Positions 2,053 through 10,858 of a stretch of DNA of 10,858 bases are shown here, piece by piece; the first letter of the stretch is position 1, and each line of letters begins with the position of its first letter. The stretch is from a virus (Duplodnaviria; Heunggongvirae; Uroviricota; Caudoviricetes), in the IMG/VR virus record IMGVR_UViG_2711768001_000007. One strand, written 5' to 3'. The notes beneath the pieces were generated by a model. The model ran no database searches, had not been told where the DNA came from, and worked only from the letters and a program-made list of their open reading frames with translations. A program made the position numbers and the translations under genes.

Positions 2053-2166
2053 AGGGGAGCATATGACATATAAAACAAAGACGACCGGGGGCGGTCGCCA
2101 ATGGATACACACTAAACTTGAACGCATCACCAACAATGCCACATTTGCGGCTGGTGGGCAATGTGA

Positions 2167-2340
2167 TCAGTCAGATTTGGTTCGTTCCAAGGTTTGCAAC
2201 GAGAGCTTTTTCCTGTGCTCTTTAAGGAATTTCTCAAGAGCAAAAGCACATGGCGCGAATCTTTCTGATTCATGCTCTATCTTTCTGCGCCGTCTTTTCC
2301 GTGCCGGTGATAATGTTTTGGTCAATTCTTTATCGGTCAT
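2167..2340 (-). CDS. Small basic hypothetical protein (57 aa from Met-6; 62 aa if started at 2355)
   Basis: Minus-strand ORF 57 bp downstream of the RHH gene. AGGA lies 7 nt upstream of the ATG at 2340. Lys/Arg-rich (RKRRRRK). No recognised family. Confidence 0.4.
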   Translation of the reverse strand: MTDKELTKTLSPARKRRRRKIEHESERFAPCAFALEKFLKEHRKKLSLQTLERTKSD

Positions 2341-2397
2341 TGTGTTGTCCTGCATAGCAATGCGCCGTAGTTACTCACACCACGGCGCTGATAGTGA

Positions 2398-2595
2398 TTA
2401 TTCTGATTCTTTGGCCTTCCGGCGCTGTTCATATTTTAATTTGCGTCCACAGGCATCTAAGACCCATGCGGAAAAATTAGCACTAGGATTAGTTAATTTT
2501 TCTTGTTCAACGCTGGCATCAATCCCATCTATAAGCTCATGTGGGAATCGAATATTTTTCTTTGCTGATTTGTTGTTTGTGTTACCGCTAGACAT
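2398..2595 (-). CDS. Ribbon-helix-helix (Arc/MetJ/CopG-like) DNA-binding protein; candidate element repressor
   Basis: 65-aa ORF with strong RBS (GAGGTG 6 nt upstream). Segment IRFPHELIDGIDASVEQEKL...SANFSAWVLDA follows the P22 Arc pattern (FNLRWPREVLDLVRKVAEENGRSVNSEIYQRVMES, from memory). Sits divergently from an operator-bearing promoter region. Confidence 0.6.
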   Translation of the reverse strand: MSSGNTNNKSAKKNIRFPHELIDGIDASVEQEKLTNPSANFSAWVLDACGRKLKYEQRRKAKESE

Positions 2596-2622
2596 TGATG
2601 CACCTCACTTAAATGGACTTTA

Positions 2623-2702
2623 TGGGCGCACACAATACAGCAAAAAAAATGAGATGTTAAGTATTGACATGTGCGCACACATGATTTTAATCTGTGCGCA
2701 CA
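2623..2702. promoter_or_regulatory. Divergent promoter/operator region: TGGGCGCACA (2623-2632), TGTGCGCACA (2670-2679), TGTGCGCACA (2693-2702); rightward promoter -35 TTGACA 2664-2669 / -10 TTTAAT 2686-2691; leftward promoter -35 TGTTAA(rc) 2655-2660 / -10 ACAATA(rc) 2632-2637
   Basis: Two perfect 10-bp palindromes spaced 23 bp centre to centre, plus a 9/10 third copy 47 bp away. They overlap back-to-back sigma70-like hexamers with 16-17 bp spacers. Confidence 0.55.
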
Positions 2703-2800
2703 GTTTGAGTTTTGTCACTCAAATTAAGCAACGCCCCGCAGTGCTCGCAACACATGCAGGGCGTCTAACCACCAACGATAGCAAGAGTATCGAGGTAGCT

Positions 2801-3004
2801 ATGAGAAATCATACCACACACCCGCAAGGGCGGGACTCGCACAACCTGAATAAATATATCTGGCGTTTTATCGCCCTGAGCACGGCACAACCGCGCGTGA
2901 TTACCATTGAGGCCAGCAGCGAACAGGAAGCACGCCAGCAATCCCCGGCTGGCTGCGTGATGGTATTCGCCGCCCGTATTCGTCAGGGGGGGTACCATGC
3001 CTGA
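2801..3004 (+). CDS. Hypothetical small protein (68 aa), first ORF of the rightward early operon
   Basis: ATG 2801 preceded by GAGGT (2792-2796). In frame with the 3' end of the long track ORF 2063-3004. End overlaps the next ORF start. Low confidence. Confidence 0.3.
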   Translation: MRNHTTHPQGRDSHNLNKYIWRFIALSTAQPRVITIEASSEQEARQQSPAGCVMVFAARIRQGGYHA

Positions 3005-3317
3005 TATGTCAAATTACCAGTACCTGATTAATCCGCATTTTAACTGTGAGCATGATATTGCTAAAAAGGTTTATTCCGCTGCGGATGGGGCTACTGACAA
3101 TATATCAATGGCTGTTGCGTCAATTGGTAGCCTGATGTGGCATGCGTCAGAAAATGAGGACTATGACGAAAAGGCCATGCGCATTGATATGGGTAATATC
3201 GGTTTGTTACTGGCAATGCTTGGACATTTTGATATTTCGTTACGGTGCACCATTGAAAATGCCACAGATGCATTAAATGCTATAAAGAAAGCGAATACTG
3301 ATTCAAATCGGGGATAA
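2997..3317 (+). CDS. Hypothetical protein (106 aa)
   Basis: ORF with G-rich RBS (GGGGGGG) upstream; codirectional with the replication gene. No recognised motif. Confidence 0.45.
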   Translation: MPDMSNYQYLINPHFNCEHDIAKKVYSAADGATDNISMAVASIGSLMWHASENEDYDEKAMRIDMGNIGLLLAMLGHFDISLRCTIENATDALNAIKKANTDSNRG

Positions 3318-3623: not shown

Positions 3624-5437
3624 AAAAAGCGCCAAATTTAAAACACCAGCCGCGTGACAAAATGACGGAAGTCATCATTTTTGCGGGTAGTGATGCGTGG
3701 GCACATGCGAAGCAGTGGCAGGAACAGGACGGGCGACTGGCTGGCGATAACGTGCCACCTGTCTGGCTTGGAGAGCAACAACTTGCCGAACTGGACAACC
3801 TGCAAATCGTACCGGATGGACGCTATCGCGTGCGTCTCTACCAGGCGGGGTTATTGCGTCCGGGGCTTGTTAATACCATCGGGCAGAAACTGGCAGCGGC
3901 AGGTGTCAGGGATGCTGATTATTACCCTGAAGGAATGCACAGCCAGAAACGGGAGAACTGGCGCGAATATCTGGAACGTGAGCGGGGAGAGCTGACGGAA
4001 AAGAAAAAGGTAGTTGAACTGCCTGTAAAGAAAAAAGAGCGGGTAAAAGACGATAACGCTTCATCACTGGCGCTTAACCAGATGGGAGCAAGTCAACGCG
4101 GCGAAGTTCTCCTGGCACATTATGGCGGTGAACTGGCGATTCATGCCGACTCTGACACTGTTCACCATTACAACGGCGTTGTATGGGAGCCAGTACAGGA
4201 TAAAGAATTACAGCGAGCTATGGCGCAGATTTTCATTGATGCGGAGATCAGCTATTCGCAGAACGCCATTAAATCGGCGGTCGATACCATGAAGTTAAGT
4301 TTGCCTGTAATGGGGAATACAGCCCGTAACCTGATTGGATTCAGTAACGGGGTATTTGATACCAGAACAGGTAATTTTCGGCAGCATAACAAAAACGACT
4401 GGTTGTTAATTGCCAGTGAATTACCTTTCAGCCCACCAGCAGAGGGGGAAACGCTGGCAACACATGCGCCGAATTTCTGGAAGTGGTTACGCCGTTCGGT
4501 GGCTGAGAATGACCGCAAGGCGGATCGCGTACTGGCTGCATTATTCATGGTGCTGGCGAACCGGTACGACTGGCAGTTATTCATTGAGGTAACAGGTCCA
4601 GGGGGAAGTGGTAAAAGCGTGATGGCGGAGATTTGCACCATGCTGGCGGGTAAGGCTAATACAGTATCAGCGAGCATGAAGGCGCTGGAAGATGCAAGGG
4701 AACGCGCGTTAGTGGTTGGCTTTTCGCTGATTATCATGCCGGATATGACCCGCTACGCTGGTGATGGGGCGGGAATTAAGGCTATTACAGGCGGTGACAA
4801 GGTGGCAATCGACCCAAAACATAAAGCCCCATATTCAACGCGTATCCCGGCAGTAGTGCTGGCGGTTAACAATAACGCTATGTCATTCAGTGACCGCAGT
4901 GGGGGGATCTCGCGCCGTCGGGTGATATTCAATTTTTCGGAAGTTGTACCGGAGAACGAACGCGATTCAATGCTGGCGGAAAAAATAGAAGGTGAGCTGG
5001 CGGTAGTGATTCGTCATCTGCTTACACGGTTTGCTGACCAGGACGAAGCCAGACGCCTTTTATATGAGCAGCAGAAATCAGAAGAAGCACTCGCGATAAA
5101 GCGTGAAGGTGATTCGCTGGTGGACTTCTGCGGCTATCTCATGGCGTCGGTAATGTGTGATGGCCTGTTAGTGGGTAATGCTGAAATTGTGCCATTCAGC
5201 CCGCGCAGGTATCTCTATCATGCCTATCTGGCTTATATGAAGGCACATGGGTTTGGTAAACCTGTAACACTGACGCGCTTCGGTAAAGATATGCCGGGGG
5301 CAATGGCGGAATATGGCAGGGAGTATATGAAACGGAAAACGAAGCACGGTTTGCGTTCAAACGTGACACTGACGGAGGAATCAGAAGACTGGATGCCATC
5401 ATGTGTATCGGTCACTAATGACGATAGCAAAAATTAA
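3620..5437 (+). CDS. Replication initiator: D5_N-like region plus SF3-type P-loop helicase (P4-family primase C-terminal-like)
   Basis: Walker A GPGGSGKS and Walker B-like LIIMPDM. D5_N-like segment IGFSNGVFDTRTGNFRQH...LPFSP. Start taken at ATG 3620 (GGAGAG RBS) rather than GTG 3605. Iteron array begins 14 nt after the stop. Confidence 0.85.
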   Translation: MKKAPNLKHQPRDKMTEVIIFAGSDAWAHAKQWQEQDGRLAGDNVPPVWLGEQQLAELDNLQIVPDGRYRVRLYQAGLLRPGLVNTIGQKLAAAGVRDADYYPEGMHSQKRENWREYLERERGELTEKKKVVELPVKKKERVKDDNASSLALNQMGASQRGEVLLAHYGGELAIHADSDTVHHYNGVVWEPVQDKELQRAMAQIFIDAEISYSQNAIKSAVDTMKLSLPVMGNTARNLIGFSNGVFDTRTGNFRQHNKNDWLLIASELPFSPPAEGETLATHAPNFWKWLRRSVAENDRKADRVLAALFMVLANRYDWQLFIEVTGPGGSGKSVMAEICTMLAGKANTVSASMKALEDARERALVVGFSLIIMPDMTRYAGDGAGIKAITGGDKVAIDPKHKAPYSTRIPAVVLAVNNNAMSFSDRSGGISRRRVIFNFSEVVPENERDSMLAEKIEGELAVVIRHLLTRFADQDEARRLLYEQQKSEEALAIKREGDSLVDFCGYLMASVMCDGLLVGNAEIVPFSPRRYLYHAYLAYMKAHGFGKPVTLTRFGKDMPGAMAEYGREYMKRKTKHGLRSNVTLTEESEDWMPSCVSVTNDDSKN

Positions 5438-5450
5438 ACTTATGGAATAA

Positions 5451-5673
5451 CTGTTCACCACTGTTCACCCTGTTATAAATATCTTTTATATCAGTATATT
5501 ATAGGGTGAACAGTTATTTATGAACTGTTCACCAAACTATTCACTGTTCACCTTTTTGATTGTTTATTGAGCTTCAAGGGTGAACAGTGGTGAACAGTTG
5601 GTGAATAGTTTTTGTGAAACTGTTCACCCCTTAACATTATGAATTAAAAGATAAAATATCAAAAGGTGAACAG
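5451..5673. repeat. Iteron-type replication origin: about 9-10 copies of GGTGAACAG / CTGTTCACC in both orientations within AT-rich DNA
   Basis: Copies at 5451-5459, 5461-5469, 5505-5513, 5525-5533, 5544-5552, 5579-5587, 5589-5597, 5600-5608 (degenerate), 5620-5628, 5665-5673. The core matches the TGTTCACC type I iteron of the P4 ori/crr as I recall it. Confidence 0.8.
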
Positions 5674-5724
5674 GTGAAGGGTTAAAACGCAAAAATTTTA
5701 ATTTACTGCTGTGAGATAAAGCCT

Positions 5725-6389: not shown

Positions 6390-6403
6390 GCAACGAGTAA
6401 CAG

Positions 6404-6428
6404 AAGCCGGAGCAATCCGGCTTTTTTA
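6404..6428 (+). terminator. Rho-independent terminator-like hairpin after the SSB-like gene
   Basis: Stem AGCCGG (6405-6410) / CCGGCT (6417-6422), 6-nt loop, then T-run 6422-6427. Confidence 0.6.
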
Positions 6429-6497
6429 TGGGTCCTCCCGGTGTAGTGACCTGCCACGGGGCGGGAGCGTCGCGGAAAAAGGCTGGTTTTTGCATTT
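6429..6497 (+). repeat. Conserved ~70-bp element, copy 1 (about 92% identical to 8964-9035)
   Basis: GGGTCCTCCCGGTG...CCACGGGGCGGGAGCG.CGCGGAAAAAGGCT.GTTTTTGCATTTTCA. Internal dyad CTCCCG/CGGGAG and GGTG/CCAC. Differences between copies cluster in the putative loop. Confidence 0.7.
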
Positions 6498-6688
6498 TCA
6501 TGGCGGCGGCAGCATGTGTAGTAATTTATTGATAATTAAAAGTTATTTCTGTTTTCACCTGTACAATATTTTTTTCTCCCTGTCATTAGACCAGTTTGCA
6601 ATTAATTGAAATATATAAATAAATCTGTTTTTCACCTGCCAGGTGGAGTTGCCTGTGTCAAAACGTGTTCAGATGGCGGGATATTTAT

Positions 6689-6711
6689 GCCGGATTTTAT
6701 CCGGCTTTTTT
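6689..6711 (+). terminator. Rho-independent terminator-like hairpin in the AT-rich region before the capsid operon
   Basis: Stem GCCGGAT (6689-6695) / ATCCGGC (6699-6705), then 6 T. A 13-bp palindrome CACCTGcCAGGTG lies upstream at 6633-6645. Confidence 0.5.
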
Positions 6712-6813: not shown

Positions 6814-7023
6814 GTGAGTTGTATTAATGACCTGAACACGGGCGATATCAGGGGTGGTTCCGTTCATCTGGATGCGCAGACCGTTATGCGCCTTAAGCAG
6901 TACAGGATCGACCATATAAATCATCATCCTGACCAACCATTACCAGGTGTGGCGCAGATTGTCAGACATGCCGTAAACACCTGGCTTAATCAGAATGGTT
7001 TTGCATCGGTGGGGGAACAATGA
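6814..7023 (+). CDS. Hypothetical small protein (69 aa), possibly RHH-like, translationally coupled to the protease-capsid gene
   Basis: GTG start 6814 with strong RBS AAGAGGA (6800-6806). Stop overlaps capsid start (ATGA 7020-7023). RHH assignment is a guess from a beta-strand then two-helix pattern. Confidence 0.45.
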   Translation: MSCINDLNTGDIRGGSVHLDAQTVMRLKQYRIDHINHHPDQPLPGVAQIVRHAVNTWLNQNGFASVGEQ

Positions 7024-8933
7024 ATCGCTGGTACACCATTAAGGCGGCGGATGTTCGCGGAGCGGCGGATATATCTATCTATGAGGAGATTGGCGGCTTC
7101 GGTGTTACTGCAAAGCAGTTCGCGGAAGACCTGAAAGCCCTTGGCGATGTTTCACATATCAATCTGAGGATCCATTCACCAGGTGGTGATGTGTTTGAAG
7201 GCATCGCCATCTATAACCTGCTACGGAATCATCCGGCAGACATTACGGTTTATATCGATGGTGTTGCGGCTTCAATGGCTTCGGTGGTCGCAATGGCTGG
7301 CGATCGTGTTGTGATGCCGGAAAACGCCATGATGATGATACATAAGCCGTGGGGTATCTCTGGCGGAAATGCTGGTGATATGCGTGATTATGCTGATTTG
7401 CTGGATAAGGTGGAAACCGTGTTAGTCCCTGCTTATGCCAGAAAAACGGGCAAATCAGCACAGGAAATTACCGCCATGCTGGAAGATGAAACCTGGATGG
7501 ACGGGAAAGAATGCCTTAAGCACGGTTTTGCTGATGAATTGTTGCCATCCGTCAGAGCAATGGCGCGAATTGAATCGAAGCGCACAGGAGATTTTTTACA
7601 TATGCCGGAAACCATTAAAGGAATGATTACACCGCCACAGGGAGCGGCAAATATTGCTGGTAATGAACAGAAACGCATCAATGGAATAAGTGAAGTGTTT
7701 AGCCTGTTCGGCAGTCGTTACGACGGGATCAAAATGGCGTGTCTGGAAGATGCATCATGTACACCGGAAATGGCCCGTGAAAAGCTGTTGAACGAGCTGG
7801 GGCGCGAGTCCACGCCATCCAATAAAAATACCCCGGCTCATATCTATGCCGGAAACGGAAACATAACAGGTGATGCAATTCGTCAGGGGCTTTATTCCCG
7901 TCTTGGGTATGAACGGCCTGAACGAGGCAACCCTTACGCGATGATGAGTCTTTTTGAAATGGCCCAGGCATCACTGGTTGATCGTGGTATCACTGTGAGC
8001 GGTTTTATTAATCGCTCGCAGGTTGTTAATGCGGCTTTTACACACAGCAGCAGTGATTTTTCTCATATTCTGGCTGGTGGGGCTGAAAAATCTGTACTGA
8101 AAGGCTGGCAGGACAGCGGCGAAACGTTCCAGAAATGGACGCGTACCGGTTCGCTTTCAAACTTTCATGAAGCAAAGCGCGTTGGTCTGAATGGTTTTTC
8201 AAAGCTGGATAAAGTACCGGAAGGTGCGGAATATAAATACATCACCACCAGCGATAAAGGTGTACCTATTGCGCTGGCCACGTACGGGAATATATTTTCC
8301 GTTACCCGTCAGGCCATTATCAACGATGACCTGACCCAGTTAACTACAATCCCCATGGCGATGGGACGCGCAGCTGCCAGAACAGTTGGCAATCTGGTTT
8401 ATCTCCTGTTAACCAGCAACGGCAAGTTTACGGATGGTAAAGCGTTATTCCATGCCGATCATAAAAATCTTATTGCGAAGGATATGGACATGGAGGGGCT
8501 TAACGAAGCCCGTAAGCTGATGCGCCTCCAGGAAGACGCTAACGGCGATTCGCTGAATATTACCCCTGCATTTGTCCTGGTCCCCGCCGCGCTGGAGTCT
8601 GCCGCACATCGCGCCATTCTGTCATCGTCATCACTCTTTCCGGTTGATGGCGTGGGCACTATCAATCAGAACCCCGGCATCATTAACGTGGTGAAAGATA
8701 TGGCGGAGGTAATCGTTGAGCCACGTCTTGATAAAGCCAATAACAAGGAGTGGTATGTGGCAGCGGCGAAGGGTATGGACACGATAGAGGTCGCTTATCT
8801 TGATGGTATTGATACGCCATATCTTGAGGAGCAGGAGGGCTTTACTGTTGATGGCGTCGCCTGGAAGGTGCGCATAGATGCAGGTGTCGCGGCCCTCGAC
8901 TATCGCGGATTACTGAAATCGAGTGGAGCATGA
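7020..8933 (+). CDS. Fusion protein: N-terminal ClpP-family prohead protease plus C-terminal probable phage major capsid protein
   Basis: N-terminal ~190 aa align with ClpP: IHSPGGDV vs INSPGGVI, GVAASMAS vs GQAASMGA (catalytic Ser), MIHKPW vs MIHQP (catalytic His). The C-terminal ~440 aa have capsid-like character (ending ...GVAALDYRG); that part is a judgement call. Confidence 0.8.
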   Translation: MNRWYTIKAADVRGAADISIYEEIGGFGVTAKQFAEDLKALGDVSHINLRIHSPGGDVFEGIAIYNLLRNHPADITVYIDGVAASMASVVAMAGDRVVMPENAMMMIHKPWGISGGNAGDMRDYADLLDKVETVLVPAYARKTGKSAQEITAMLEDETWMDGKECLKHGFADELLPSVRAMARIESKRTGDFLHMPETIKGMITPPQGAANIAGNEQKRINGISEVFSLFGSRYDGIKMACLEDASCTPEMAREKLLNELGRESTPSNKNTPAHIYAGNGNITGDAIRQGLYSRLGYERPERGNPYAMMSLFEMAQASLVDRGITVSGFINRSQVVNAAFTHSSSDFSHILAGGAEKSVLKGWQDSGETFQKWTRTGSLSNFHEAKRVGLNGFSKLDKVPEGAEYKYITTSDKGVPIALATYGNIFSVTRQAIINDDLTQLTTIPMAMGRAAARTVGNLVYLLLTSNGKFTDGKALFHADHKNLIAKDMDMEGLNEARKLMRLQEDANGDSLNITPAFVLVPAALESAAHRAILSSSSLFPVDGVGTINQNPGIINVVKDMAEVIVEPRLDKANNKEWYVAAAKGMDTIEVAYLDGIDTPYLEEQEGFTVDGVAWKVRIDAGVAALDYRGLLKSSGA

Positions 8934-8937
8934 CAAC

Positions 8938-8963
8938 AAGGGCGGCGATAGCCGCCTTTTTTT
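8938..8963 (+). terminator. GC hairpin plus T-run after the capsid gene; terminator-like, and also contains a 9-nt match to lambda cosN
   Basis: Stem GGCGGC (8941-8946) / GCCGCC (8951-8956), loop GATA, T-run 8957-8963. GGGCGGCGA (8940-8948) matches the first 9 nt of lambda cosN GGGCGGCGACCT as I recall it. Confidence 0.5.
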
Positions 8964-9035
8964 ACGGGTCCTCCCGGTGGGGTGGTCTGCCACGGGGCGG
9001 GAGCGGCGCGGAAAAAGGCTAGTTTTTGCATTTTC
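8964..9035 (+). repeat. Conserved ~70-bp element, copy 2 (about 92% identical to 6429-6497)
   Basis: See copy 1. Same position relative to a GC hairpin plus T-run. Confidence 0.7.
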
Positions 9036-9190
9036 ATTCGTCATCATCATCTTTCTATAATGTTGAATTTTAAGTGTTTTTATTTTTGGTATGTTAATTT
9101 TGCTTATTTTGTGTTCAACATACAGCGCGTTTTTTGACCTTTTTTAAAAGATATTTGCAAGATGCATTTTTAAAACATTCTGGAGCGGGT

Positions 9191-9676
9191 ATGGATCGGG
9201 AACTGAAAAATCTGATGCTGAACATTAACCAGCTGGCGGCGATAGCGGGAATATGTCGCCAGACTGCGGCGGCAAGGCTGAAAAATATCCAGCCAGCCGG
9301 AGGACATGACAAGCTGAAACTCTATCGGGTGACTGACATTCTGACTTGTTTTCTTGATCTTCCCGTTCCGGCATCACTGGAAGAAATGGAGCCACACGAC
9401 CGTAAGGCCTGGTATCAGTCCGAACGTGAGCGCCTCAAGTTCGAACAGGAAACGGCGCAACTCATACCCGCCGATGATGTGCGAAAAGAGATGGCTATAT
9501 GGGGAGAAATCGTAAGCGAGGAACTGGAAAAACTCCCCAGTATTCTGGCACGTGATGTTGGGCTTAAACCGATGGCAGTAAACAGAGTGCAGTCAATTAT
9601 TGACGATTTGTGTAATCAGATTATCAGCCGGATGGTAAAAAATGACGTAGTGAATGAGGTCGCAAAACAGGCATGA
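9191..9676 (+). CDS. Terminase small subunit, lambda Nu1-like
   Basis: From ATG 9191 (GGAG RBS 9183-9186). NQLAAIAGICRQTAAARLKNIQPAGGHDKLKLYRVTDIL parallels lambda Nu1 KKQLADIFGASIRTIQNWQEQGMPVLRGGGKGNEVLYDSAAVI (from memory). The track ORF starts at TTG 9134, which I consider less likely. Confidence 0.7.
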   Translation: MDRELKNLMLNINQLAAIAGICRQTAAARLKNIQPAGGHDKLKLYRVTDILTCFLDLPVPASLEEMEPHDRKAWYQSERERLKFEQETAQLIPADDVRKEMAIWGEIVSEELEKLPSILARDVGLKPMAVNRVQSIIDDLCNQIISRMVKNDVVNEVAKQA

Positions 9677-9960
9677 TAATGACCGAATCTGAAATACTGC
9701 GATTAATCCGCTGTGCTGGTGGAATTAGCCAGTTGGCTGACGAACAGGCCGCGCAGCCGGATACAGTCACCGCTGAAAATTACGCGCGTGTGGTGGCTGA
9801 GGTGATGCGCCGTGACGGTATTGAGCTTAACGGCGTGGATATGCGCAACATACGAACCAGAGTCCTTGAGTTGCTGGCATACCGTCGCCGTTCTCAACAA
9901 CGGAGGGAGAGCGCGAAAAATACTTACCAGTGGAAGAAGCCGGAACGGTTGCAGCGGTAG
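9673..9960 (+). CDS. Hypothetical 95-aa protein with weak resemblance to the N-terminal Nu1-binding segment of lambda large terminase gpA
   Basis: ATGA overlap with the terS-like gene, as Nu1 and A overlap in lambda. SEILRLIRCAGGISQLADEQAAQPDTVTAENY vs gpA SQVNRLRHFVRAGLRSLFRPEPQTAVEWADANY. Similarity ends after ~40 aa and the ORF stops at 95 aa. Confidence 0.45.
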   Translation: MIMTESEILRLIRCAGGISQLADEQAAQPDTVTAENYARVVAEVMRRDGIELNGVDMRNIRTRVLELLAYRRRSQQRRESAKNTYQWKKPERLQR

Positions 9961-10319: not shown

Positions 10320-10445
10320 GACCATGAAATTACGGAAACTACCCGTAGTTTGGGTAGTAAGAGTAACACCCAGATTTTGGGGCTTACTCGCGATACCCAA
10401 ATAAAGGGTATCTGTGGAAGAAATATCGTTTCTCATATGTGAGTA

Positions 10446-10516
10446 CCGAGGGCGGAATTCCGCCTTCGGTTACTTATTGTGCTCATGCACAGGGAGGGGC
10501 GGGTCAAATCCCTGTG
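10446..10516. repeat. Cluster of three hairpin/palindrome elements: near-perfect 24-bp palindrome with GGCGGAATTCCGCC core (10451-10464), TGTGC/GCACA (10478-10491), CACAGGGA/TCCCTGTG (10488-10516)
   Basis: Read directly from the sequence; non-coding. Could be a structured RNA or protein-binding sites. Confidence 0.6.
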
Positions 10517-10660: not shown

Positions 10661-10717
10661 TTGTTCGTGGTTGTTCGATATTGTTCGTGGAACGGTGTAG
10701 TTAATGGTGTAGTTAAT
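10661..10717. promoter_or_regulatory. Putative integrase arm-type sites at the right end: three 10-bp-phased TTGTTCG decamers (10661-10690) and tandem GGTGTAGTTAAT x2 (10694-10717)
   Basis: Mirror of the motif content at 91-164, same orientation, about 70 bp inside the right terminal repeat. Confidence 0.4.
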
Positions 10718-10788
10718 TTTACTGTTTTTGACGAGCTTATTGTTTGCAACTCAATGAAAAATAAAGGCTAATAAGCCAAATACTATAA

Positions 10789-10858
10789 ATGATAGTTATT
10801 TATCATCTAGTGTTCGCGGGTGTTCGTGGTAGTGTTTTGTGTGCATTCATCGCTATGA
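10789..10858. repeat. Right terminal direct repeat, 70 bp, identical to 1-70; putative att core (attR side)
   Basis: Exact identity to 1-70. Confidence 0.8.

Follow-up and report, generated by a model that had tools for sequence, protein, structure and literature searches.

The DNA analysed here, IMG/VR record IMGVR_UViG_2711768001_000007 (10,858 bases, called the window throughout), is a complete 10.8-kb Gram-negative phage-inducible chromosomal island (PICI), a satellite of Escherichia coli phages. The region with two cos sites in direct orientation, a gene for a small terminase subunit (TerS) and a gene for a protein of 95 amino acids (aa), p95, is very probably the packaging, or late, zone with which this island parasitises lambdoid phages of the mEp460/phi458/cdtI group. 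An earlier sequence-only reading had proposed a packaging module here, consisting of a lambda-like cosN at 8940-8952, a lambda-like cosB, a homologue of the lambda small terminase Nu1 and, in p95, a mimic or remnant of the N-terminus of the large terminase subunit (TerL). The lambda-family cos upstream of a small-terminase gene stands, while cosN lies elsewhere, the small terminase belongs to another family and p95 is no relative of TerL. The principal features are:

6430-6662, plus strand: cos1, with cosQ GGGTCCT at 6430-6436, cosN GGGCGGGAGCGT at 6459-6470 and a cosB of the cdtI/Tritos/HannyBb type.
8964-9190, plus strand: cos2, with a cosQ-like GGGTCCT at 8966-8972, cosN at 8995-9006 and cosB at 9007-9190.
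9191-9676, plus strand: island TerS of the DUF1441 family, 161 aa, in which an N-terminal winged helix-turn-helix (wHTH) and a conserved central helix are followed by a C-terminal tail that is not acidic and ends ...ISRMVKNDVVNEVAKQA.
9673-9960, plus strand: p95, 95 aa (93 aa if it starts at the ATG at 9679), small, basic and of three predicted helices, with the C-terminal motif Y-x-W-K-K-P-E-R-L-R-R.

The whole window is bounded by identical 70-bp direct repeats (1-70 and 10789-10858, attL and attR). Its open reading frames (ORFs) and their Pfam matches give, on one strand, a tyrosine integrase, AlpA, DUF4222, a D5-type primase, a single-stranded DNA-binding protein (SSB), a 69-aa ORF, a protease-capsid fusion, the DUF1441 protein and the 95-aa ORF. 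In published Gram-negative PICIs, an int/alpA zone for integration and a zone for replication are accompanied by a late zone, where late genes captured from helpers are found, usually a capsid gene and in some cases a homologue of terS (PMC6092414; PMC10085698; PMC10111431). By the criteria stated in these papers the window has int and alpA, a primase with an adjacent origin, a late zone with capsid and terS, a size of about 10 kb and att repeats, and it is without tail or lysis genes. Since this layout agrees with the published organisation, the region can be read as the end of a PICI that is devoted to packaging. In the chromosome of E. coli XJW9B277, an insert between cspD/yljB and clpS matches the window with 100% identity, and at least 80% of 8900-9960 is found in 191 of 5,426 E. 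coli genomes. Other types of satellite were considered and dropped. Neither the ORFs of the window nor their Pfam matches include a terL, portal, head-tail connector or HNH gene, and without terL, portal and connector genes the island is not a capsid-forming PICI (cf-PICI) as defined in 10.1101/2022.09.08.507074 and PMC10085698. A P4-like satellite was dropped on account of the lambda-like cos and of the lack of Sid, Psu or Delta matches, and an Rpp-type PICI for lack of an Rpp homologue.

The cosN of cos2, at 8995-9006, is predicted to leave a 12-nucleotide (nt) 5' overhang, GGGCGGGAGCGG, and around the nick (8992-9011) the window reads ACG, then GGGCGG..CGCGG, as in lambda. In the alignment, lambda has TTACGGGTCCTTTCCGGTGATCCGACAGGTTACG before the nick, GGGCGGCGACCT as overhang and CGCGGG after it, against TTACGGGTCCTCCCGGTGGGGTGGTCTGCCACG, GGGCGGGAGCGG and CGCGG at 8962-9011 of the window, so that 7 of the 12 overhang bases equal those of lambda and the flanks ACG and CGCGG are identical. 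The motif GGGTCCT is found at 48473-48479 of lambda, which we take to be its cosQ, a designation that reportedly goes back to Wieczorek and Feiss in 2001. The window has it at 6430 and 8966, in both places 29 nt before GGGCGG, and this spaced pair (GGGTCCT-N22-GGGCGG) thus occurs twice where 0.02 occurrences are expected by chance. Two lambda cosB strings noticed in the sequence-only reading are indeed present, TTCGTCAT at 9037 (lambda 67) and the A/T-rich GTTTTTATTT at 9076 (lambda 83). Counted from 8995 as position 1, GTTTTTATTT lies at +82 (lambda +83) and the ATG of terS at +197 (lambda +191).

The first base of the records of the phages cdtI (AB285204) and Tritos (OV696610) is the one homologous to 8995 (GGGCGGGAGCGT...), their last bases are ...CCTGCCACG, and the linear assembly of mEp460_4F5 breaks 5 nt from the homologous cut position. 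The core of cos2 is 92-96% identical to mEp460, phi458 and 569R4, and the whole stretch from there through cosB into terS (8959-9621) is colinear with these phages at about 73% nucleotide identity; judged by this alignment, the cosB of cos2 is a diverged form of the mEp460/phi458 type. A local alignment of the lambda and island cos sites scores modestly better than chance (28-30, against 18 +/- 2.2 for shuffled sequences), and the placement of cos therefore rests on the colinear geometry and the homologous phage termini. Overhangs of 12 nt at the 5' ends, of the GGGCGGCGCGCT type, were inferred for the related lambdoid group mEp213/LLS (PMC12315714). The core of the lambda R sites, CGTTTCC, is absent from the forward strand of the whole window, as had been noticed for this region, and its reverse complement is found at 172, 4447, 7851 and 9448, none of them in cosB. 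An inverted repeat specific to the cosB of cos2, ATGTTGAA at 9060-9067 and TTCAACAT at 9114-9121, lies where the cosB of phi458 has a perfect consensus for integration host factor (IHF) at +62, enclosed by a palindrome, CCACTGTAATA/TATTACAGTGG. No IHF consensus with one mismatch or fewer was found in cos2, and the island repeats may be altered sites for TerS or IHF.

The second cos site, cos1, was missed by the sequence-only reading and lies outside 8938-9960, the span considered there. Over 80 nt (6422-6501) it repeats the core of cos2 with 91% identity, after which (...TTTCAT) the two sequences diverge completely. From its cosN onward (6459-6662) cos1 matches the first 204 bases of the cdtI and Tritos records with 94.6% identity, and the match to HannyBb is 92.7% over 233 nt. 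It contains a perfect IHF consensus on the minus strand at 6522-6534 (WATCAANNNNTTR, +64), as in cdtI, and two direct copies of CTGTTTT(T)CACCTG, at about 6549 and about 6624. At its 3' end cos1 runs into what is left of a cdtI-type terS, its first ~6 codons (6643-6662), and a terminator comes next at 6689-6705. The island thus has two cos sites in direct orientation, 2.5 kb apart, with the same cosQ and cosN and with different cosB, and both are predicted from their sequence to leave the 12-nt overhang GGGCGGGAGCGK, starting at 6459 and 8995.

The link to this group of helpers comes from sister islands in IMG/VR. The block cos1-p69-capsid-cos2-terS-p95, where p69 is the 69-aa ORF, is conserved at 97-100% identity among islands whose integrase, primase and site of insertion are different. 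In several of these (L027, L029, L031, L034, L035, L038, L039 and L040) the island is inserted in the terL gene of an mEp460/cdtI-type prophage, around codon 332, between ...SRIASFWM and EGPAAAYQ; in L040 the junctions are at about 325 and about 10660. TerL, a W-like protein and the portal protein of the host prophages are 96-100% identical to those of phi458/cdtI, and the interrupted terL is phi458-like in L038 and cdtI-like in L040. Helper-embedded PICIs have been described (PMC10111431), and the terL-embedded sisters are such islands. Their place in terL of these prophages identifies the helper family as the mEp460/phi458/cdtI group, which is characterised by a gpA-type TerL, a DUF1441 TerS and a fused protease-capsid gene, and the two types of interrupted terL fit a dual helper range. 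The window's own copy is chromosomal (cspD-clpS) and not in a prophage. Four island lengths (4 x 10,788 = 43,152 bp) amount to 92-101% of the genome lengths of the helpers, a size compatible with packaging of a tetramer in helper-sized heads, and packaging of multimers was proposed for the E. coli PICI EcCICFT073 (10.1101/2022.09.08.507074; PMC6092414). Small capsids are also conceivable, since no more than 57% identity is seen between the protease-capsid fusion of the island and those of the helpers.

The 161-aa protein encoded directly after cos2 matches Pfam DUF1441 (PF07278, E = 2e-35) and phrog_141, 'terminase small subunit' (E = 5e-57), and is 65-71% identical in amino acids to the annotated TerS of phi458, mEp460 and PhiR47_1. 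In phi458, mEp460_4F5, cdtI and Tritos a DUF1441 gene lies directly between cos and a gpA-family terL, the position that p95 occupies in the island. The sequence-only reading had assigned the protein to the Nu1 family; the only Pfam match in it is DUF1441, with no match to Phage_Nu1 (PF07471). BLASTP against Nu1 gave E = 1.3, and hhalign of DUF1441 against Nu1 a probability of 9% over 38 N-terminal columns, a weak resemblance in the wHTH. The AlphaFold2 (AF2) model, with a mean predicted local distance difference test (pLDDT) of 76.6, gave weak Foldseek matches to a MerR-type wHTH and to lambda TerS (6hn7_B, probability 0.85, E = 0.4). Judged by this model, the term Nu1-like holds only for the role and the probable fold. 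Neither the 161-aa nor the 95-aa protein had a phmmer match to Rpp (PDB 6HLK) or 6HN7 at E <= 1-10, and sequence searches of PDB with both returned no Nu1, Rpp or terminase match.

The cdtI-type and mEp460-type TerS are both DUF1441 proteins, unrelated in their N-terminal DNA-binding domains, and in this domain the island TerS is of the mEp460 type (70% identity, versus 17-18% to the cdtI type). Along the protein the identity to phi458 TerS is 70% in residues 1-60, 78% in 61-100 and 65% in 101-140, and it falls to 24% in 141-161; all alignments with the helper proteins stop at residue 150. Almost every Enterobacterales homologue ends in an acidic tail (...DDEEELQQEE, ...EEENQEDE, ...CCDEADM), and its loss is confined to the satellite clade of 161-162-aa proteins, in which a conserved neutral tail, residues 141-161 (nt about 9611-9673), ends in ...ISRMVKNDVVNEVAKQA / ...VKNDVVNEVAKQA. 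The net charge of the last 20 residues is +0.8 in the island TerS, compared to -7.2 in phi458 and -6.2 in cdtI. In lambda the C-terminus of Nu1 binds the N-terminus of gpA (PMC6739421), and the N-termini of the helper TerL are basic. By this analogy the acidic tail is likely to be the contact to TerL, which the island TerS would have lost. With this tail replaced, island TerS would probably not recruit TerL by itself but act as part of oligomers that also contain helper TerS.

From the homologies, positions and helper link described above we infer cleavage, TerS-cos pairing, hetero-oligomers and any role of p95 as parts of the following scheme. Upon induction of a helper the island would excise, replicate from its own origin and form concatemers. 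A cdtI-type helper could use cos1, a site without a terS of its own, directly with the TerS and TerL of the helper. The island TerS would bind the diverged cosB at cos2, which lies directly before its gene. A terminase containing helper TerL might thus be brought to cos1 by helper TerS or to cos2 by island TerS, in the latter case through mixed oligomers of helper TerS and the tail-less island TerS, held together by the conserved central helix. Such oligomers would also diminish packaging of the helper, in an Rpp-like manner. TerL would then nick at GGGCGGGAGCGK, with cosQ supporting termination.

Put together, these proposals amount to a 'bilingual' island with one cosB per helper lineage, a tail-swapped TerS that acts only in mixed oligomers, as a TerS-derived, convergent counterpart of Rpp, and a 93-aa protein that is a general packaging factor of cos-type PICIs. 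In this full form the model is speculative, and we would rather expect one or another of its parts to fail. Between the cdtI and mEp460 types, TerL differs in its first ~20 residues and is otherwise 88% identical.

Several points weigh against our reading of the region and of its two sites. Several sister islands that are otherwise near-identical have no cos1, which is therefore dispensable, and one of the two cos sites of EcCICFT073 is not needed for transfer (PMC6092414). cos2 is without the IHF consensus and the palindrome of the phi458 cosB, and may therefore be weaker or of changed specificity. The segment of the TerS recognition helix, RQTAAARL, is identical in island and phage, which leaves a change of TerS specificity unproven, and the acidic tail as a TerL contact has lambda as its only model. 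The ends of the island are predicted, and for the cdtI and Tritos records the termini may go back to analogy and not to measurement. Finally, knock-outs of a PICI capsid gene left transfer and interference unaffected (PMC10111431; PMC6092414).

It may also be that only one of the two sites functions, cos1 being a passenger of the capsid block or cos2 a passenger of terS, so that the two types of cosB would say nothing about a dual helper range. This is a possibility to be taken seriously, if not the one we favour. In EcCICFT073 cos1 alone is essential and deletion of cos2 even raises transfer (PMC6092414), and the variable presence of cos1 among the sister islands points the same way. Against this, cos1 still agrees with cdtI-type phages in 94.6% of 204 non-coding bases, the IHF site and the repeats among them, and sister islands are embedded in both phi458-like and cdtI-like terL genes.

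What could p95 be then, if it stands in the place of terL? The sequence-only reading suggested that its first ~40 aa resemble the N-terminus of gpA, making it either a mimic of the TerL N-terminus or the remnant of a truncated terL. No such likeness to gpA or to the helper TerL appeared by BLASTP, HMMER or hhalign: the best BLASTP values were E = 0.94 for lambda gpA and E = 3.6 for phi458 TerL, with no alignment at the N-terminus, and hhalign of a 20-member p95 family alignment against TerL N-termini gave a probability of 0.06%, hence no significant similarity at the level of profiles either. The protein matches phrog_1561, a family of unknown function, at E = 5e-52. Its family comprises 875 clusters at 90% identity, and in the best 120 of these 875, from which lengths were read, the proteins have 93-144 aa. 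A HMMER scan of 1.84 billion representatives gave 36 matches, 34 of them of 44-135 aa, the other two being long and repeat-like (1813 and 2175 aa, matched in 6 and 11 stretches, respectively); none of the 36 has the size of a terminase (about 640-700 aa). By the condition that the sequence-only reading had itself set, the lack of similarity refutes both the mimic and the remnant at the level of sequence, and a mimic of one specific TerL N-terminus is also unlikely because p95 is common to islands whose helpers have unrelated TerL N-termini.

The conserved core of the family is ENYARVVAEVMRRDGIELNG-D---IRTRVL and its C-terminus, YxWKKPERLRR, is invariant. Three helices are predicted in the AF2 model (pLDDT 73.5), for which Foldseek found no match in PDB or BFVD at E < 0.1, and there was no NCBIfam match. 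A marginal PADLOC hit to BrxA (E = 0.008) was judged to be noise. Among 50,697 phage records p95 has one partial match, in an unannotated and uninformative region of Klebsiella phage P12620-1, and a scan of one genome per species found two loci only. The genomic neighbourhood was compared in 82 loci (80 from IMG/VR, CFT073 and the window). In all of them p95 is the terminal gene of the island. In 68 of the 82 a cosQ..GGGCGG site precedes it by at most 1.5 kb, both with a cosN of GGGCGGGAGCGK and with the lambda-type GGGCGGCGACCT, and irrespective of the presence of terS or of a capsid gene. An inverted cos, only 48-65 nt upstream of p95, is seen in about 24 loci. The last gene of EcCICFT073, 65 nt downstream of the inverted cos2 of that island, encodes a protein 73% identical to p95. 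On these comparisons of sequence and gene order, p95 is a conserved gene specific to satellites and associated with cos sites, not a derivative of TerL.

As the most likely guess, though one that we hold tentatively and would not bet on, p95 has an accessory role in packaging: a Ppi-like interference or adaptor protein that would bind the tail of helper TerS, TerL or cos DNA and favour packaging of the island. Such a role would explain its constant position beside cos sites of any cosN type, and is in keeping with its near absence from phage genomes, its strongly basic conserved tail and, here, its translational coupling to terS. On the other side, p95 has no homology or fold match to any characterised protein in the databases searched, and its position could reflect merely the last gene of a late operon. 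In EcCICFT073, c1503 (rppA) was the only gene after the origin reported to inhibit lambda (Fillol-Salom et al.), so the p95 homologue is not a strong lambda inhibitor if, as its position implies, the 93-aa gene was among those cloned. A more general decoy for the TerS tail was rejected, as islands with Rpp also carry p95 and need the tail of helper TerS to be free. A distant homologue, in islands without a recognisable cos upstream, also speaks against the accessory role. It is 45% identical to p95 and ends islands of another type, with an AAA_25 replicase, ProQ and PerC (L014-L016). The intergenic region upstream of it (in L015, for example, 7760-8000) has four copies of (A)AAAAGTGTCAA in the place of a recognisable cos.

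It is very unlikely that the module is a decaying lambdoid prophage remnant, with the cos copies and terS as relics without packaging function. The truncated terS start at the end of cos1, the altered TerS tail, the lack of terL and portal genes and the loss of cos1 from some relatives speak for this reading. Yet the ORFs are intact, the module keeps its 97-100% identity in islands with different integrase, primase and site and is carried by many E. coli genomes (the 191 mentioned above), the int-alpA-primase-ori architecture and att repeats are complete, and some relatives are embedded in helper terL genes. The altered TerS tail is itself conserved within the 161-162-aa clade and so points to selection, not decay.

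The placement of cosN at 8940-8952 had started from GGGCGGCGA at 8940-8948, which does equal lambda bases 1-9; the match to lambda ends after these 9 bases. Of the following terminator hairpins, each directly before a cos site, the first has this 9-mer as its 5' arm:

8938-8963, plus strand: intrinsic terminator of the protease-capsid gene, a hairpin pairing 8938-8946 with 8951-8959, then T7.
6402-6427, plus strand: terminator hairpin and T-run after the SSB gene, directly before cos1 (RNA fold -15.4 kcal/mol, z = -5.83).

The first of these, GGGCGGC-GATA-GCCGCC followed by T7, begins 5 nt after the capsid stop codon (8931-8933), and its RNA fold of -16.2 kcal/mol (z = -5.66) was equalled by none of 200 shuffled sequences. 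Given this position, the T-run and the strong fold, GGGCGGCGA is a terminator stem; a second copy is found on the minus strand at 2967-2975. The homologous cosN lies 55 nt downstream, at 8995-9006. The lambda-like spacing that had been claimed is also not seen from 8940, which puts GTTTTTATTT at +137 and the terS ATG at +252, as opposed to +83 and +191 in lambda. The ATGA overlap between terS and p95 is real (9673-9676), but it is no lambda trait, as nu1 and A of lambda overlap by 26 nt (711-736). The complete proposal, in which p95 would divert the helper terminase as a mimic of the TerL N-terminus or a truncated terL, is the least credible of the alternatives: in its favour are the 9-mer, the two cosB-region strings, the ATGA overlap, a charge of +6.8 in the C-terminal 30 aa of p95 that resembles the basic helper TerL N-termini (+3.5, +5.5), and the acidic helper TerS tails (-6 to -7), which make an electrostatic decoy conceivable, and it is opposed by the identity of the 9-mer as a terminator stem with a homologous cut site at 8995, by a small terminase of the DUF1441 and not the Nu1 family, by a p95 family without TerL similarity or any terminase-sized member, by the 73% conservation of p95 in EcCICFT073, an island dependent on lambda-type TerS and TerL, and by the finding that only c1503 among the post-origin genes of the latter blocked lambda.

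The closest known system is the cos1-rppA-cos2-p93 module of EcCICFT073 (locus L099, CFT073 NC_004431, 2500-3655), an island with two functional cos sites (PMC6092414; PMC6739421). It consists of a terminator, cos1 (GGGCGGCGACCT), rppA, the inverted cos2 and the 93-aa gene. Like the window, EcCICFT073 is an E. coli PICI in which this module has the same position, with a hairpin and T-run directly before cos1, two cos sites that keep the cosQ and cosN of the helper, a gene after the first functional cos whose product is a DNA-binding protein with a wHTH resembling that of TerS, and the same last gene. The two differ in cosN (GGGCGGGAGCGK in the window, the lambda-type GGGCGGCGACCT in EcCICFT073) and in arrangement, as the cos sites of the window are direct, 2.5 kb apart around the capsid gene, and those of EcCICFT073 inverted, flanking rppA. 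The protein after cos2 of the window is a full-length DUF1441 TerS without a match to 6HLK, whereas c1503 matches 6HLK at 5e-31. Also, the cosB of cos1 is recognisably that of a helper, while the cosB of EcCICFT073 was reported to be unlike those of its helpers.

With the phages mEp460/phi458/PhiR47_1 and cdtI/Tritos/HannyBb the island shares the cosQ-cosN core at 92-96% identity. cos2 and terS are colinear with the former group (about 73% in nucleotides, 65-71% in amino acids) and cos1 is 94.6% identical to the latter. Unlike these phages the island is without terL, portal and tail genes; its TerS lacks the acidic tail of the mEp460 group, with only 24% identity in the C-terminal 21 residues, and its cos2 lacks the IHF consensus and palindrome of phi458. 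Similarities to lambda are cosQ GGGTCCT, the sequence at the nick (ACG, then GGGCGG...CGCGG), GTTTTTATTT at +82/+83, the start of terS about 190-197 nt from the nick and the gpA-family TerL of the helpers. In contrast to lambda, only 7 of 12 overhang bases are shared, there are no CGTTTCC R sites, DUF1441 replaces Phage_Nu1 and the overlap after the small terminase gene is ATGA instead of the 26 nt between nu1 and A. In concept the arrangement is similar to that of the pac-type Staphylococcus aureus pathogenicity islands (SaPIs) with TerS and Ppi, where a satellite TerS homologue redirects helper TerL and a small accessory gene adjoins, although these are headful systems and that of the window is cos-based. 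The insertion of sister elements in helper late genes, here terL, is shared with the helper-embedded PICIs (PMC10111431).

Between the two cos sites lies the remaining part of the late zone:

6814-8933, plus strand: the 69-aa ORF and the protease/capsid fusion gene (phrog_4934, phrog_133, Pfam).

The 69-aa ORF matches phrog_4934 and overlaps the protease-capsid gene by ATGA; in EcCICFT073 a small ORF of similar length likewise directly precedes the capsid gene. The fusion gene encodes 637 aa with a ClpP-type prohead protease and an HK97-type major capsid protein (Phage_capsid_4, 1e-53; CLP_protease, 2e-35; phrog_133). Its product is 57% identical to those of the fused genes of Stx phages, PhiR47_1 and HannyBb and is conserved at 97-100% among the sister islands; it may be a factor for capsid size or for interference.

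Elsewhere in the island, GGTGAACAG repeats, both direct and inverted, are dense at 5436-5680, immediately 3' of the primase gene, and are probably the iterons of the island replication origin. Two 60-nt blocks rich in TTGTTCGT and 78% similar to each other (95-164 and 10661-10720) adjoin the terminal repeats and may be arm-type sites of the integrase. The 830-nt non-coding stretch between p95 and attR, which is kept in the terL-embedded sister islands, contains a strong GC-rich hairpin of 11 pairs (ACCGAGGGCGGAATTCCGCCTTCGGT) at 10445-10470. A 313-aa ORF at 2063-3004 is probably spurious, as RefSeq has instead a minus-strand YlcI/YnfO-family gene and a P4-type, Icd-like cell-division inhibitor (about 2901-3104). 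Scans of the window with Rfam, where no C4 or IsrK-type RNA appeared, and for tRNA were empty.

For annotation, this analysis corrects the position of cos and identifies the DUF1441 proteins here as small terminases. Three details seem to be new with respect to the literature consulted: a cosB dialect for each cos site, the replacement of the TerS tail and the ubiquitous 93-aa gene beside cos. If the details hold, two cos sites may widen the helper range of an island, with one cosB dialect per helper lineage, and a satellite TerS may have lost the tail that contacts TerL and kept the parts for DNA binding and oligomerisation. Such a tail-less TerS, if true, would link the TerS strategy of SaPIs with the Rpp strategy of E. 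coli PICIs, and the 93-aa gene without an assigned role adjoins cos in hundreds of islands, including the model island EcCICFT073.

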